Assembly (NCBI GenBank): GCA_963843015.1
Contig: CAWJIR010000011.1
Span: 16 to 64,015 of the forward strand
Source of the DNA: an uncultured Chloroflexia bacterium
GTDB lineage: Bacteria; Chloroflexota; Limnocylindria; QHBO01
Direction: 5' to 3'
DNA length: 64,000 bases
Part shown: positions 28,180 to 32,078 of the stretch, piece after piece
Layout: every line of letters begins with the position of its first letter
Position numbering within the stretch: the stretch's first letter is position 1
Made by a program: the position numbers and the translations under genes
The notes under the pieces: generated by a model
Seen by the model: the letters and a program-made list of their open reading frames with translations, nothing else
The model's database searches: none
Told to the model about the DNA's origin: nothing

Positions 28180-28209
28180 TGGTGCCGGAGGTGAGATTTG
28201 AACTCACAC
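28180..28209 (-). repeat. exact 30-nt copy of the 3' end of tRNA-Leu(CAA) (att-like direct repeat); not a complete tRNA
   Basis: TGGTGCCGGAGGTGAGATTTGAACTCACAC is identical to 31992..32021. No complementary 5' acceptor strand (GCCGGAG) and no anticodon stem can be formed downstream. Confidence 0.8.
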
Positions 28210-28356
28210 CTTCTTGCCGCCATTTGAGCACGAATCGAGCGGTTCGGCTGCTTTCCAACGACGGGGCGAACGCCCAATGTTGCTACCAGTCGTCGAGCAG
28301 GACGCCGGCTCCCGACGCCTACGGCTCGGGCGCGGGGGCCGTGAGAGACTTCAATC

Positions 28357-28857
28357 TTGACGAACTACGTCGAGATTCACGCCGACGAATGGCGCTTTCA
28401 GCCGCGGGTCGCAGCGGTCTGCGTCTGGCAGGACCACCTCCTGCTCCAGGGGGCGCTTGACGGCGCCTTCTGGGTGCTGCCCGGCGGGCGCTTGCTGCCG
28501 CTGGAGCTGACCGCGGATGCGCTGGTGCGGACCATCCGCTGGGAGATCGGACAAGAGGTGGCAGTCCAGCGGCTGCTCTGGGTAATGGAGTATGTGACCC
28601 CGATGGGAGGTCAACCGCTCCACGAGCTGGGTTTCTACTACGCCGTGGACCTGCCCGAGAACAGCCCGTTCTTCGACCTGACGCACGACCACGCCGGGGT
28701 GGAACGAGGCCACGACCTGGTGCTGCGCTGGTTCCCGGTCGATGTCCTGCCTGACCTGCCGCTTTTCCCGGAGTTCCTGCGCACGGCGGTGCGGCAGATG
28801 CCGGACAGCCCGCAGCACATCGTTCGGGTGGATATCGACGCCCGAGCTGAGGGCTGA
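28357..28857 (+). CDS. NUDIX-fold protein with degenerate Nudix box
   Basis: Intact 166-aa ORF (TTG start). The box reads GGRLLPLELTADALVRTIRWEIGQ, i.e. GX5EX7 followed by RT-I-R-W-E instead of REUXEE. Confidence 0.65.
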   Translation: MTNYVEIHADEWRFQPRVAAVCVWQDHLLLQGALDGAFWVLPGGRLLPLELTADALVRTIRWEIGQEVAVQRLLWVMEYVTPMGGQPLHELGFYYAVDLPENSPFFDLTHDHAGVERGHDLVLRWFPVDVLPDLPLFPEFLRTAVRQMPDSPQHIVRVDIDARAEG

Positions 28858-28948
28858 TCCCGGCGCTGGAGACAGTCCGCGAAGGATTGTCATGGCGTGT
28901 GACTGGCCATAGGCTGCCCAACCAAAGTCTCGCTCGGTAATAGGACAA

Positions 28949-30235
28949 ATGGGCGCGCGCCAAACGCGCCGTGTAGACTACGCGCCGCCCGCAACCGAGG
29001 GTCGCGAACGTGCCCTGCCACCCATCGTGAAGCGAATCGCACTGCGCATTTACTGCGAGGCGTGTGGCGTGTCGGTGAACGCCGACCTCGCGGATACGCG
29101 GTACTGCCTGGACTGCAACCAGTACATCTGCCTGGGTTGCTGGAATGCGTCCCGGAGCCGCTGCACGGCGTGCGCTTCCGCCACCGCAGCGGGTGCGGTG
29201 AATCGACGCGGCCGCGGCGCGAGCATGCGAACGGCTCGCCGGGCCGACTTCAGACTTCGACAGGGAGCGACGGAGGCCTTGGCACTTGCGGCCTCCGGTG
29301 TCACGACCAGCCCCCGCGACTCATGGGTGGACGCCGCATGTCTGAAGATCAAGATCACCGTTGCCGAGCAGGTGGGAGCACGCGCCCTGCGACGGCTGAC
29401 CGGCGCCAGCGCATTGCGGGCGCAGCCCCTGGCTGAGCGAATCCGCCGTCACGCGCAGGCGGCCGCCGTCGCGCTACAGACCGCGAGCGCCGCACCTGTT
29501 GCCGTGATTGCCCATGATCCACCAGTGGCGATACCGGCTGTGCCGCCAGCTGAGCCTCGGGCTGCCGTCGCTTCAGGAGCGTTCGCACGACGCGGCGAGG
29601 ATCATCGGACGCGCCGGCGACTCATCGCCGGCGCAGCGGCCGTGGCGCTCCTCGTCGGCATCGTGGTTGCCGTCTGGAGGCCGGGATGGCCGGATGCGGA
29701 ATCAGCCGGCTTTGGGGTTCTCGGGGGCAACTCATCTCCGACGCCGTCCGAGCGGGTGACCGGCAACGAGACGAACCCATCGCTGGTGGGCGAGACGCCC
29801 GCGCCGTCGAGCTCTACTGACGGACCCGCGACTGACGACAGACCCACGACCCCGACGGATGGGCCGGCCAGTAGCGGACCGCCGGCGGGCGGCGGCGTCC
29901 CGGGTTCCGCTGGCGCTCCAGGAGCAACCAGCGCGCCGGCGCCCACGCCCGCACCGACACCTCGGCCGCCAGGTGCCCCCCCGGTTCCGTCACCTGCGCC
30001 GACCGCGCCACCACCGCCACCCCCGCCACCGGTTCCAACCCCAACGCCGGTCATTTGGGTCGACACTGACGGCGATGGCGTCCCGGATTTGGCCGTCGGT
30101 CTCGGGCCGGACAACTGCCCGCTCATCTGGAATCCGGGACAGGAAAACGCCGACGGCGACACACTCGGTGACGCCTGTGATCTAGACGACGACAATGACG
30201 GGATTCCCGATCTCTTCGACCCCCACCCCCGCTAG
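28949..30235 (+). CDS. Cys-rich zinc-ribbon / TM / Pro-rich linker / thrombospondin type-3 (Ca-binding) repeat protein
   Basis: Intact 428 aa. N-terminus: [26 protein letters not shown]: [19 protein letters not shown]. Linker: [39 protein letters not shown]-terminal repeats: [42 protein letters not shown]. Confidence 0.65.
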
Positions 30236-30261
30236 AGCTGTTGGGCTCGGCGGACGAGCGG

Positions 30262-30825
30262 CTAGCGCGCCACGCGGTAGCGGAGGTAGACGACTCTCGA
30301 GCTGAAGGTGCGGGTCTCGACGAGTTCGAGATCCACCCGGCGCTCGCGCTGGGGAAAGAACGGAATGCCACCGCCAACCAGCACCGGGTAGACCACGGCC
30401 CGGTACTCGTCGATCAGACCCAACGCGGCCGCCTCGGCGGCGAGCGTCGCGCCGCCGATCGCGATGTCGCCCTCCCCCGGCTCGGCGCGCAACCGCTCGA
30501 TCTCCTCCGCCAGGCCGCCGGAGGCCAGGCGGGCATTGCCCTGCACCGCCGACAGCGTGGTGGAGAAGACCACCTTCGGGAGCGGCTTCCAGAGCGCGGC
30601 CCACTCGAGCTCTGCGTCGTCGAGCGATCGATCCTGGTCGGCGGTCTCCCAGTACAGCATCGTCTCGTACAGCCGTCGTCCCAACAGGTGGACGCCGACC
30701 TCTCGTATCTCGTCGATCCAGAAGCGAAAGACCTCCTCGTCGGGCCCCGTCCAGTCGAAGTTGCCGTCCGGCCCGACGATGTAGCCGTCAAGTGAGACGC
30801 CCATCGAATAGGTCACGCTGCGCAT
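30262..30825 (-). CDS. dihydrofolate reductase family protein (RibD C-terminal domain)
   Basis: Intact 187 aa: SVTYSMGVSLDGYIVGPDGNFDW...IAIGGATLAAEAAALGLIDEYRAVVYPVLVGGG. GAGGAGG SD lies 7 nt upstream. Confidence 0.85.
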   Translation of the reverse strand: MRSVTYSMGVSLDGYIVGPDGNFDWTGPDEEVFRFWIDEIREVGVHLLGRRLYETMLYWETADQDRSLDDAELEWAALWKPLPKVVFSTTLSAVQGNARLASGGLAEEIERLRAEPGEGDIAIGGATLAAEAAALGLIDEYRAVVYPVLVGGGIPFFPQRERRVDLELVETRTFSSRVVYLRYRVAR

Positions 30826-30950
30826 CAGAAGTCCTCCTCGATAACGGGTTCGACCGGGCGGGAGTCCGACGTACCGATGTTCCGCTGGTCGGCTTTCCTG
30901 GCGGCCTTGACGACCACCAGCTTTTGCCGGACGGCGCGAGAACCAGTTTT

Positions 30951-31829
30951 CTAAGGCGGGAAGTCCGGGTCGGTCCCGATGACGTCGTAGCCTTCGACGA
31001 CGAACTGTTCGCGGCAGTACAGCTTGAAGACCTCGGGACCAACCTCCGGAACCAGGCCTGCGCCGTCGTGGACGCAGGTAGAGGCCGCCGGGTCGTCGAA
31101 ATGCCCGGTCACCCGGGCAATCGAACCGGCTGCCGGATCAGCGATCCCCGTGTCCGGCAGTACTCGGAGTTCGAGAATCCCTCCATCAGGCCACGAGACG
31201 CGTAGCCATTCATTCACGATCGGGTAGGCCAGCCATCTGGGCTCGAAGTTGCCAATGGCACTCCCTCCACAGCCTCGGCAACCCCACGTTCCCTCGACGG
31301 TGAGCGAGCGATCCCCGAAGCATGCCAGCCGATCCCAAGGCGTCATGGTCGTTAGGGTGGCCAGATCTGGAGCACCGTTGGGGCAACGGGGTGGCAGGAG
31401 CTCGAGGTACCGATCGGCCCCGGTTCCGGCCGCGACCCAGCCAGCATCCCAGGTCGCCGGTAGGGCGGGCCAGTCCGCATATCCGGCGGCGAACGACACG
31501 GCATACCAATCGATCCCGTCAGCGTTCGTCTGGAAGGGAAAGGAGCTACCCACAAAGACCACATCGCCCGCCCGCGCCGTTTCGATGACGTTGCCGGTGA
31601 GGCCTGGCGACTCGCGAATGCGCAGCTCCTCTGCAGTCACTGTCGCGCGACTGCCCGGTGGCAGGATGCCCGGGGGTGCAAAGACGACTTGGGTGTTCGA
31701 CGAGGCCGATGGTTGTGCGGTCGTGGGCGTAGGGGAGGCGGTTGGCCCGGACGTCGATGTGGCGGCGGGCTCCACGGCGGCCGGGCTCGTGCAGGCCGCG
31801 AGCAGGACAAGCGCAACCGCTGCTCGCAT
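30951..31829 (-). CDS. lipoprotein with SH3-like domain and Cys-rich C-terminal domain, hypothetical
   Basis: TAGACT lies 7 nt upstream of ATG-31829 (minus strand). Lipobox VLLAAC. The SH3b-like stretch is LRIRESPGLTGNVIETARAGDVVFV..DGIDWYAV. The ORF track extends to 31856. Confidence 0.6.
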   Translation of the reverse strand: MRAAVALVLLAACTSPAAVEPAATSTSGPTASPTPTTAQPSASSNTQVVFAPPGILPPGSRATVTAEELRIRESPGLTGNVIETARAGDVVFVGSSFPFQTNADGIDWYAVSFAAGYADWPALPATWDAGWVAAGTGADRYLELLPPRCPNGAPDLATLTTMTPWDRLACFGDRSLTVEGTWGCRGCGGSAIGNFEPRWLAYPIVNEWLRVSWPDGGILELRVLPDTGIADPAAGSIARVTGHFDDPAASTCVHDGAGLVPEVGPEVFKLYCREQFVVEGYDVIGTDPDFPP

Positions 31830-31991
31830 CTCAGCCAGTCTACGCCCGGATCCCATCAGCCCGGCTCCCGACGACCACCTCGCCTACCGCAAGGTTCTAC
31901 GGGTGGCTCGGCTATCGACAAGGGCCGAACACCGCAGGAAGCCGGGTCAGACGCGGACGACCTCCCCCTGGCTCCGATGTGCTACTGGTGA

Positions 31992-32078
31992 TGGTGCCGG
32001 AGGTGAGATTTGAACTCACACGAGGTTTCCCTCATCGGTGTTTGAGACCGACGCGTCTGCCAGTTCCGCCACTCCGGC
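31992..32078 (-). tRNA. tRNA-Leu (anticodon CAA), CCA encoded
   Basis: The reverse complement folds by hand as GCCGGAG-TG-GCG(GAACTGGCAGA)CGC-G-TCGGT(CTCAAAC)ACCGA-TGAGGGAAACCTCGT-GTGAG(TTCAAAT)CTCAC-CTCCGGC-A-CCA. It is 87 nt with a long variable arm. Confidence 0.93.

Follow-up and report, generated by a model that had tools for sequence, protein, structure and literature searches.

The accessory gene block beside the tRNA-Leu(CAA) gene of the window (the whole 64-kb stretch of DNA that was analysed) is very probably what remains, decayed and fixed in the chromosome, of one or more integrative elements that entered this tRNA gene. Insertion of a mobile element in a tRNA gene, with later loss of the integrase, is a common and well-understood pattern; an accessory gene block of an uncultured soil Chloroflexota lineage is explained here by a textbook mechanism, and current understanding is not challenged. 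The initial annotation had described an attL/attR scar of site-specific integration that encloses accessory cargo without an integrase, and this description is supported. It had left two options for the islet, a decayed island or a module mobilised in trans; the old scar, the decaying tRNA fragment, the lost crossover segment and the integrases of relatives favour the former. The features of the region, with the basis of each call, are:

27549..28151, minus strand: left core flank, HExxH-motif gene (sequence comparison)
28180..28217, minus strand: displaced 3' fragment of tRNA-Leu, a pseudo-tRNA at the distal junction (repeat, profile, three-way alignment with L081 and L178)
28218..28356, no strand: element-side sequence beside the fragment, including the region upstream of the Nudix gene (sequence comparison)
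28357..28857, plus strand: Nudix-fold protein with a degenerate Nudix box (Pfam PF00293, E=5.5e-8)
28949..30235, plus strand: Cys-rich, transmembrane, Pro-rich protein with thrombospondin type-3 repeats (Pfam PF02412, TSP_3, E=1.3e-9)
30262..30825, minus strand: RibD_C-family reductase (Pfam PF01872, E=6.7e-20)
30951..31856, minus strand: SH3-like lipoprotein (weak match to Pfam SH3_3, E=0.0085)
31992..32078, minus strand: intact tRNA-Leu(CAA), proximal junction, attL-type (ARAGORN, Rfam, allele comparison)
32082..32831, plus strand: separate, window-specific insertion on the other side of the tRNA (repeat search, comparison with relatives)

The tRNA-Leu(CAA) at 31992..32078 is the only tRNA that ARAGORN finds in the window, and it is also called by Rfam (RF00005, 56.5 bits), which detects no second tRNA at 28180-28270. 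The 30-mer TGGTGCCGGAGGTGAGATTTGAACTCACAC is present in exactly two copies in the same orientation, at 28180-28209 and 31992-32021, and no match appeared in 100 shuffles, even with up to three mismatches tolerated; the exact repeat is not a chance match. Thus, both the exact repeat of the tRNA 3' end and the inability of its second copy to fold as a tRNA, as initially described, are confirmed. The tRNA likeness of the displaced copy extends to 28217, giving 38 nt in total, in which 28210-28217 is what is left of the ancestral variable arm (CTTCTTGC vs. GTCCTTGC); in a search within the islet, the tRNA-Leu profile scored 31 bits (E=1e-9) against 28180-28234. Further tRNA fragments, which would mark successive integrations, did not rise above the shuffled background in a profile search of the islet. 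The adjoining element-side sequence is conserved in L081 and L178, and its part at 28220-28283 is 86-89% identical to the sequence next to a degenerate pseudo-tRNA in L004. The 13-mer GAGCNCGAATCG near the fragment was considered as a shared element arm and dropped, being at chance level outside the orthologues of the window, L081 and L178. The 30-mer is absent from the IMG/VR viral contigs.

The original extent of the repeat was given back by relatives. At the orthologous junction of L081 and L178, the displaced fragment runs from the CCA end to GTTTGAGAC, that is, into the anticodon loop, and in a three-way alignment these genomes retain the full-length fragment, from the inside of which the window lacks 51 nt. 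Judging from this alignment, the 30-mer of the window is the stump of a longer repeat (~57 nt, CCA end to anticodon loop), and the deletion, which is private to the window and lies after 28217, took away the rest of the variable arm, half of the anticodon stem and the loop. GTTTGAG is the common end point of such repeats in L083 (55/55 exact), L082 (57 nt), L004 and L030 (37 nt), and the fragment covers exactly the segment from CCA to the anticodon loop in six genomes. The crossover, whose exact position we infer, is therefore placed in the anticodon loop rather than at the 3' end of the tRNA; the initial annotation was right about an attL/attR scar but not about this site. The distal copy of the window lacks the anticodon-loop region in which all related repeats end, which argues against a working att site, and the islet is probably immobile now. 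Nor is the exactness of the 30-mer a sign of a recent event, since the orthologous fragment carries one change in L081 and about five to six in L178, and the absence of changes in the window fits chance retention. An exact repeat thus need not mean a recent event, a methodological lesson that came, like the crossover position, from relatives.

The alleles of the tRNA point to the same kind of event. The 5' half of the live tRNA of the window is identical to those of outgroups L006 and L008, whereas its variable arm (GAGGTTTCCCTC) differs from the allele of the outgroups and the pseudo-tRNA (GTCCTTGCGGAC). It is the variable arm of the displaced fragment, present as GTCCTTGCGGAC in L081 and as the stump CTTCTTGC in the window, that matches the live tRNAs of L006 and L008, the closest outgroups. 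Moreover, GAGGATTGGAT, the sequence right past the fragment, is similar to what follows the L008 tRNA on its 3' side (GAGATTGGA). A chimera of this kind, with an outgroup-type 5' half and a different variable arm, is expected when a tyrosine integrase crosses over in the anticodon loop, and the 3' part of the tRNA (31992-32048, anticodon loop through CCA end) probably derives from the element. In the proposed scenario, one or more elements would have entered the single tRNA-Leu(CAA) gene at its anticodon loop through a tyrosine integrase, in an ancestor shared by a small Ca. Limnocylindria (Chloroflexota) clade. Recombination between attP and the tRNA gene would have split the latter: the 3' part from the anticodon loop through CCA would have been supplied anew by the element, so that a functional chimeric tRNA lay next to the sigma-factor gene, while the host's own ~57-nt 3' part would have ended up at the opposite end, adjoining the HExxH gene. 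Loss of the integrase and of any genes for excision would have followed, and the cargo would have been rearranged through later gains and deletions. The displaced fragment would then have decayed, the 51-nt deletion removing the anticodon-loop crossover region, so that the four genes may now be ordinary accessory genes of the chromosome, no longer excisable by this route.

The cargo agrees with such a history. Open reading frames and Pfam bear out the four accessory-type genes initially reported (Nudix-fold, TSP3, RibD_C and SH3-like), as well as two of their details: the Nudix box is called degenerate because by eye it reads RTIRWEIGQ, and sequence reading places a GAGGAGG Shine-Dalgarno before the RibD_C start at 30825. 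The lipoprotein likely starts at MRAAVALVLLAAC (31829). Intergenic gaps in the islet do not exceed 147 nt. The reported lack of an integrase also holds, as Pfam detects no recombinase among the four reading frames, and tblastn and a profile built from 58 integrases gave no homologue in any frame of the 64-kb window (best E=0.25). A composition check, proposed initially, gave a GC content of 67.7% vs. 70.9%, the lowest of any 3.8-kb stretch of the window, and a tetranucleotide distance in the top 0.7%. The block is a mosaic and not the one small module suggested initially. The Nudix gene, which is 96% and 92% identical at the nucleotide level to its counterparts in L081 and L178, respectively, is the oldest cargo gene, common to both; L081 is deleted for window positions 28910-30144, and L178 diverges from about 28834 on. 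The lipoprotein gene occupies the tRNA-proximal place, where L030 and L069 have an integrase, and has paralogues in the L082 and L030 islands. Exact-protein look-ups with the RibD_C and Nudix proteins of the window found no record.

Homology between the flanks of the window and five relatives ends at 28150 and restarts at 31992. The interval is filled in relatives by differing genes (CMD, DUF2652, DUF4386, SnoaL), and none of the 80 related loci carries the cargo; L081 and, partly, L178, both near relatives, are its only other carriers found. The islet is thus missing from relatives, outgroups included, while the site is conserved, and the arrangement initially named as counter-evidence, the same four genes without repeats in all relatives, was not found. 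An empty site with the HExxH gene directly against the tRNA was not found either; the nearest, L008, has a CMD-family gene between them. Three roughly species-level lineages, with flanks 84-91% identical, have the same fragment and Nudix gene; the scar is therefore old and predates their split. Decay of the fragment in L178 has proceeded at a roughly neutral rate. However, window and L081 share 98.0% identity at the RibD_C and lipoprotein end, compared with 90.9% for the flank, so that part of the islet was exchanged or acquired later than the scar. This later exchange of tRNA-proximal cargo could reflect mobility; homologous recombination explains it equally well. The independent assemblies also bear on whether a chimeric or mis-joined contig made the second copy of the 30-mer. 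Many private single-base insertions in the window, which break polA, a luciferase-like gene and the HExxH gene, do point to an error-prone long-read assembly. Nevertheless, the junction of flank, fragment and Nudix gene recurs in assemblies from other samples, L081 (ENA) and L178 (JGI), and L081 has the same RibD_C-lipoprotein-tRNA end. An artefact is effectively refuted by these assemblies and is extremely improbable.

Other islands at this tRNA show what may have made the scar. In L030, a 3.7-kb element carries the gene of a tyrosine integrase (PF00589, E=6.6e-26), at a distance of 112 nt from the 3' end of the tRNA, together with one for an SH3-like lipoprotein; L069 and L099 have integrases 62-67% identical beside tRNA-Leu(CAA), and integrase remnants lie at the same tRNA in L051 and L013. 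Integrase-less islets with the same type of repeat are found in L083 (one gene between 55/55 identical repeats), L082 (57-nt repeats around 10 kb, with two successive tRNA fragments) and L049. Across Ca. Limnocylindria, tRNA-Leu(CAA) has thus long been a hot spot at which genes are gained and lost, cargo varies and integrases are intact, remnant or missing. A tyrosine integrase of the L030 type may have made the scar in the window, as suggested by the shared site and repeat boundary, not by homology within the islet. The near-perfect repeats of L083 and L082, the presence of a matching integrase family in the class and the greater identity of the tRNA-proximal part to L081 (98%, with flanks at 91%) would also suit an active integrase-less module, CIME-like or cassette-like, that is excised and reintegrated at the tRNA repeats by an integrase from elsewhere in the genome or from an incoming element. 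The L081 contig, moreover, stops exactly at the tRNA boundary, and assemblies often break at polymorphic junctions. This is nonetheless unlikely for the window: its distal repeat has lost the inferred crossover core, the scar and Nudix gene occur in three diverged lineages with roughly neutral decay in L178, the window lacks an integrase homologue, and the best 80 integrase loci listed include none from genomes with integrase-less islets. Neither an attP-bearing free element nor a circular junction was found in the IMG/VR viral contigs or in one metagenome scan, in which the flank-plus-repeat junction TGAGRAYTGRATTGGTGCCGGA gave one unrelated chance match (L181) and no empty site. A broader proposal, itself rather unlikely, is that tRNA-Leu(CAA) in Ca. 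Limnocylindria is a cassette-accreting site, at which integrase-less modules of one to about ten genes with 55-57-nt repeats would be delivered and exchanged in trans by the integrases of minimal elements such as that of L030, the window islet being an old, disabled member. The one-gene islet of L083 is the clearest candidate for such a module, and an island-specific, oriented motif of ~46 nt, in which no significant RNA fold was detected, might serve as a cis site.

A decayed and fixed islet fits well among known systems. Genomic islands at tRNA and tmRNA genes are integrated by tyrosine integrases (PMC4383910; 10.1101/2020.11.02.365908). Like Islander-type islands with the anticodon-loop sublocation, the region has an intact regenerated tRNA at one end, chimeric with a host 5' and an element 3' part, a displaced 3' fragment at the other (a direct repeat that reaches from CCA into the anticodon loop), variable and compositionally atypical cargo missing from relatives, and integrase elements at the same tRNA within the class. 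It differs in that the integrase, which usually lies inside the island next to the tRNA, is missing, and in being very small (3.8 kb), old (three lineages) and internally deleted in its distal repeat. CIMEs are elements without integration and transfer genes but with attL and attR (PMC5704250), and the islet likewise lies between attL/attR-type repeats and lacks such genes; tandem accretion at one target gene, as in streptococcal ICE/IME-related CIMEs, is seen in L082. However, CIMEs retain att sites that still work and move together with a neighbouring ICE or IME, whereas the distal site of the window is without the region of the inferred crossover, and this uncultured class has no known conjugative partner. 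In Dehalococcoides, also of the Chloroflexota, some ssrA islands are devoid of an integration module, and a status as CIMEs or fixed remnants has been proposed for them (PMC3146451). They share the pattern of multiple islands downstream of a single-copy tRNA-like gene with 3'-end direct repeats, but involve a CcrB-like serine recombinase, a 20-bp repeat and the tmRNA T-loop, in place of tyrosine recombinases and a repeat of about 55-57 nt that ends in the anticodon loop of tRNA-Leu(CAA). An integron-like cassette array, comprising an integrase with attI and attC-bounded cassettes, was rejected, as the window has no integrase, the repeats are tRNA-derived and the islet contains no further fragments.

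On the left, the reading frame of the HExxH gene is broken in the window; relatives remain homologous up to the start codon of this gene, which lies 28 nt from the fragment. The name 'SprT-like', used in the initial annotation, is not borne out, as Pfam gives no match even for the intact orthologue P0121; a homologue search with the window reading frame, weakened by frameshifts and a strict E-value limit, gave two matches, one of which led to L178. On the right, the spacer between tRNA and sigma-factor gene, 28 nt long in all relatives, is duplicated in the window together with the start of the sigma gene (about 51-62 nt, at 32082-32142 and 32776-32831), and the two copies bracket a gene for a 176-aa secreted protein (32193-32723). 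This non-tRNA duplication around a one-gene insertion indicates that duplication-associated insertions occur here, and an origin of the islet without integrase, by partial local duplication of the tRNA or short-repeat recombination beside merely lineage-specific genes, would also agree with the missing integrase. Such an origin is very unlikely given that the fragment comprises exactly the CCA-to-anticodon-loop segment in six genomes, that the live tRNA is chimeric as a crossover predicts, that true integrase elements with an identical repeat boundary occupy the same site, and that the islet is atypical in composition. Loci L047, L054, L057, L059 and L066, with ~3.8 kb between tRNA and sigma gene, lack the duplication, have a different arrangement and are not relevant. 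The genomic context of P0127 was uninformative, and P0123, on a 128-kb contig, is a 99% match to the 176-aa secreted protein.

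The 3.8-kb islet beside tRNA-Leu(CAA) is real: it is an old tRNA-gene integration scar of an ordinary kind, now disabled, that encloses accessory cargo. The main interpretation of the initial annotation was right; scars of this kind are well known, and their host class here, Limnocylindria, is poorly studied. ARAGORN on the whole window, with which Rfam agrees, calls a single tRNA and none near 28180, confirming that the second copy of the repeat is not a tRNA. The 30-mer (TGGTGCCGGAGGTGAGATTTGAACTCACAC) at the tRNA 3' end occurs exactly twice in the window, in the same orientation, whereas shuffled sequence gave no match even with three mismatches allowed. 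Inside the islet, no additional tRNA fragments were found.

28180-28209, orientation of the tRNA: distal copy of the 30-mer
31992-32021: copy of the 30-mer at the tRNA 3' end
31992..32078, minus strand: tRNA-Leu(CAA)
Islet ORF: Nudix-fold protein (PF00293, E=5.5e-8)
Islet ORF: protein with thrombospondin type-3 repeats (PF02412)
Islet ORF: RibD_C reductase (PF01872)
Islet ORF: lipoprotein, weakly SH3_3-like

Pfam searches of the ORFs bear out the four-gene cargo first described, with a Nudix box that is degenerate, since it reads RTIRWEIGQ; no intergenic gap exceeds 147 nt. The islet was also said to lack an integrase: none of the four ORFs is a recombinase by Pfam, and a profile of 58 integrases of the L030-type family, searched against the window in all six frames, found nothing (best E-value 0.25).

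The tRNA side of the islet is a deeply conserved frame, since in almost all loci examined tRNA-Leu(CAA) lies divergent from, and 28 nt upstream of, an ECF sigma gene followed by DnaJ and polA. The ECF sigma factor adjoining the tRNA retrieved eighty loci, nearly all of them from soil MAGs labelled Candidatus Limnocylindria or Chloroflexota. The possibility that all relatives carry the same four genes does not hold: the 80 loci contain no homologue of the four cargo proteins apart from a 29% identical lipoprotein in L030. In comparison with the five closest species representatives (L003, L004, L005, L006 and L008; flanks 78-83% identical), left homology reaches 28150, the start of an HExxH-motif gene (initially called SprT-like), and restarts at 31992. 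The interval between this gene and the tRNA is hypervariable:

L008: 0.6 kb, CMD-family gene
L005: 0.7 kb, DUF2652 gene
L004: 1.2 kb
L003: 1.5 kb
L006: 2.1 kb, DUF4386 and SnoaL genes

An empty site, with the HExxH gene directly abutting the tRNA, was looked for and not found in any genome compared. In several relatives, a small membrane protein of ~60 aa (…GWVMVTVGV…LVGVGAVMAIRARR), which is absent from the window, is conserved in the variable interval next to the tRNA (L003 8331-8737; L004 6280-6601; L006 8950-9354; L083 about 2600-2775). Upstream of its gene lie about 100 nt of conserved non-coding sequence, and no Rfam family was found at this region in L004 or L083.

Two relatives nearer to the window than any species representative, L081 (ENA, 61-kb contig) and L178 (JGI, 3.8-kb contig), were reached via homologues of the lipoprotein and the HExxH protein. 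Judging from left-flank identity (window vs. L081, 90.7%; window vs. L178, 90.5%; L081 vs. L178, 84.4%), the three are roughly species-level lineages. In each, a tRNA fragment and the Nudix gene occupy this same position. The L081 fragment is about 57 nt long (TGGTGCCGGAAGTGAGATTTGAACTCACAC-GTCCTTGCGGAC-ATCGGTGTTTGAGAC, beyond which tRNA similarity ends) and takes in the acceptor 3' strand, T arm, variable arm, 3' anticodon stem and anticodon loop; that of L178 is the same apart from ~5-6 changes within the 30-mer region. Relative to both, the window bears a private 51-nt deletion that starts midway along the variable arm and extends across the anticodon loop. The exact 30-mer is therefore the stump of an older, longer repeat. 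The proposed att scar is upheld, with a repeat that reached the anticodon loop. The exactness of the 30-mer is compatible with chance survival, and the scar is older than the split of the three lineages.

A repeat from the CCA end to the anticodon loop corresponds to a recognised anticodon-loop sublocation (10.1101/2020.11.02.365908). A profile search detected such tRNA fragments in at least eight genomes, each one lying downstream of the tRNA and oriented like it. In L083, a single 470-aa gene is enclosed by a perfect 55-nt repeat ending in GTTTGAG, and the 37-nt repeat of L030 ends likewise; a 57-nt repeat in L082 encloses about 10 kb, with an older degenerate fragment farther out, and the fragments of L004 and L006 are degenerate. 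The 30-mer itself occurs in 16 species representatives, with two copies only in L083, and is absent from IMG/VR; the single metagenome scan, for the flank-repeat junction, yielded nothing beyond a chance match.

In integrase-mediated insertion, the host 5' part of the tRNA gene is kept, the element brings a new 3' part, and the old host 3' part is displaced (PMC4383910). The alleles in the window are as this predicts, and the live tRNA is chimeric. The 5' half of the live tRNA is identical to that of the nearest outgroups L006 and L008, including the D loop, which varies among lineages, whereas its variable arm (GAGGTTTCCCTC) differs from theirs and is internally compensated. The variable arm of the displaced fragment (GTCCTTGCGGAC in L081, GTCCCCGCGGAC in L178, the stump CTTCTTGC in the window) is instead that of the live tRNAs in L006 and L008. 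Thus, the 3' part of an element would have been joined to the host 5' part of tRNA-Leu(CAA), displacing the old host 3' part. Just past the fragment, a few bases (GAGGATTGGAT) are similar to those flanking the L008 tRNA on its 3' side (GAGATTGGA), which fits a fragment still on its original host flank.

Integrases occur at the same tRNA elsewhere in the class. L030 (=L098) contains an apparently complete, very small integrative element of 3.7 kb (6160-9941) immediately downstream of tRNA-Leu(CAA):

375-aa tyrosine recombinase (PF00589, E=6.6e-26) whose gene begins 112 nt from the tRNA 3' end
152-aa ORF without a Pfam match
SH3-like lipoprotein gene
distal 37-nt tRNA-derived repeat

L069 and L099 have integrases 62-67% identical at the same position, and only C-terminal remnants lie beside the tRNA in L051 and L013. 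No integrase is detectable in the window islet or L081, nor by Pfam in the ORFs tested from L082, L083 and L049. Across the class, one tRNA site thus shows three states, and such a mix of intact, decaying and integrase-free forms is what the life cycle of these elements leads one to expect. The integrase-free state matches the definition of a cis-mobilizable element (CIME; PMC5704250), and tandem ssrA islands of Dehalococcoides, also Chloroflexota, provide a parallel (PMC3146451). Remoter relatives of the L030-type integrase family also adjoin other tRNA genes.

The composition of the islet is atypical, as the comparison initially proposed shows: at 67.7% GC (window mean, 70.9%), it is the lowest-GC 3.8-kb stretch in the window, and it ranks in the top 0.7% for tetranucleotide distance from the window average. 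The islet is also a mosaic. The Nudix gene is common to all three lineages, L178 departs from the window directly after it, and in L081 a simple deletion has removed window 28910-30144, cutting the TSP3 gene short. The window and L081 are 90.9% identical in the flank, 96% in the Nudix gene and 98.0% across the RibD_C-lipoprotein segment; the tRNA-proximal part therefore arrived, or was exchanged, after the scar had formed. With the L081 contig ending right at the tRNA, the 98.0% tract could reflect either element transfer or ordinary homologous recombination through the tRNA. Since the distal copy in the window lacks the anticodon-loop region, the islet is probably no longer excisable by the type of integrase that created it. 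The same loss makes it unlikely that this is a module mobilised in trans by an integrase encoded elsewhere, which is conceivable for clean cases such as L083; of the two options first offered, the decayed island is retained.

A second, window-specific insertion lies on the 5' side of the tRNA (32082-32142 and 32776-32831 around 32193-32723). The duplicated ~51-62 nt (92% identity) comprise the tRNA-sigma spacer, which is 28 nt in all relatives, a -10-like TGTGATTATAGG and the first ~11 codons of the sigma gene; they enclose a gene of low GC (62.7%) for a 176-aa secreted protein. The tRNA-side copy keeps the ancestral promoter-like sequence, whereas the sigma-side copy has two changes within it. 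A stretch of about 25 nt ahead of the second copy is weakly similar (~60%) to the 5' end of the tRNA.

A recurrent ~46-nt motif (ACCTCTCGGGACCCGCGGTAGCCGAGGTGGGCGTCGGGAGCCGGCG) is confined to islands that lie downstream of tRNA-Leu(CAA), and every copy is oriented like the tRNA:

Window: 31868-31888, minus strand
L082: 5003, 5946, 9907, 13120, 13903, 14655
L083: 4543
L003: 9445
L081: 102

The motif shows no significant fold, does not occur in the integrase-bearing L030 element and often lies 40-95 nt upstream of genes for secreted proteins or lipoproteins. An ECF-type promoter (GGGACC-N18-CGTCGG) and a cis recombination site are its two possible roles.

Several window genes are split over two or three frames, namely a luciferase-like monooxygenase gene (26621-27552), the HExxH gene (27549-28151) and polA (34702-37598), and at least seven single-base insertions within 1.5 kb are private to the window relative to L178 and L081. 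Because the essential polA is affected, indel errors in a long-read assembly, not pseudogenes, most likely account for these frame breaks.
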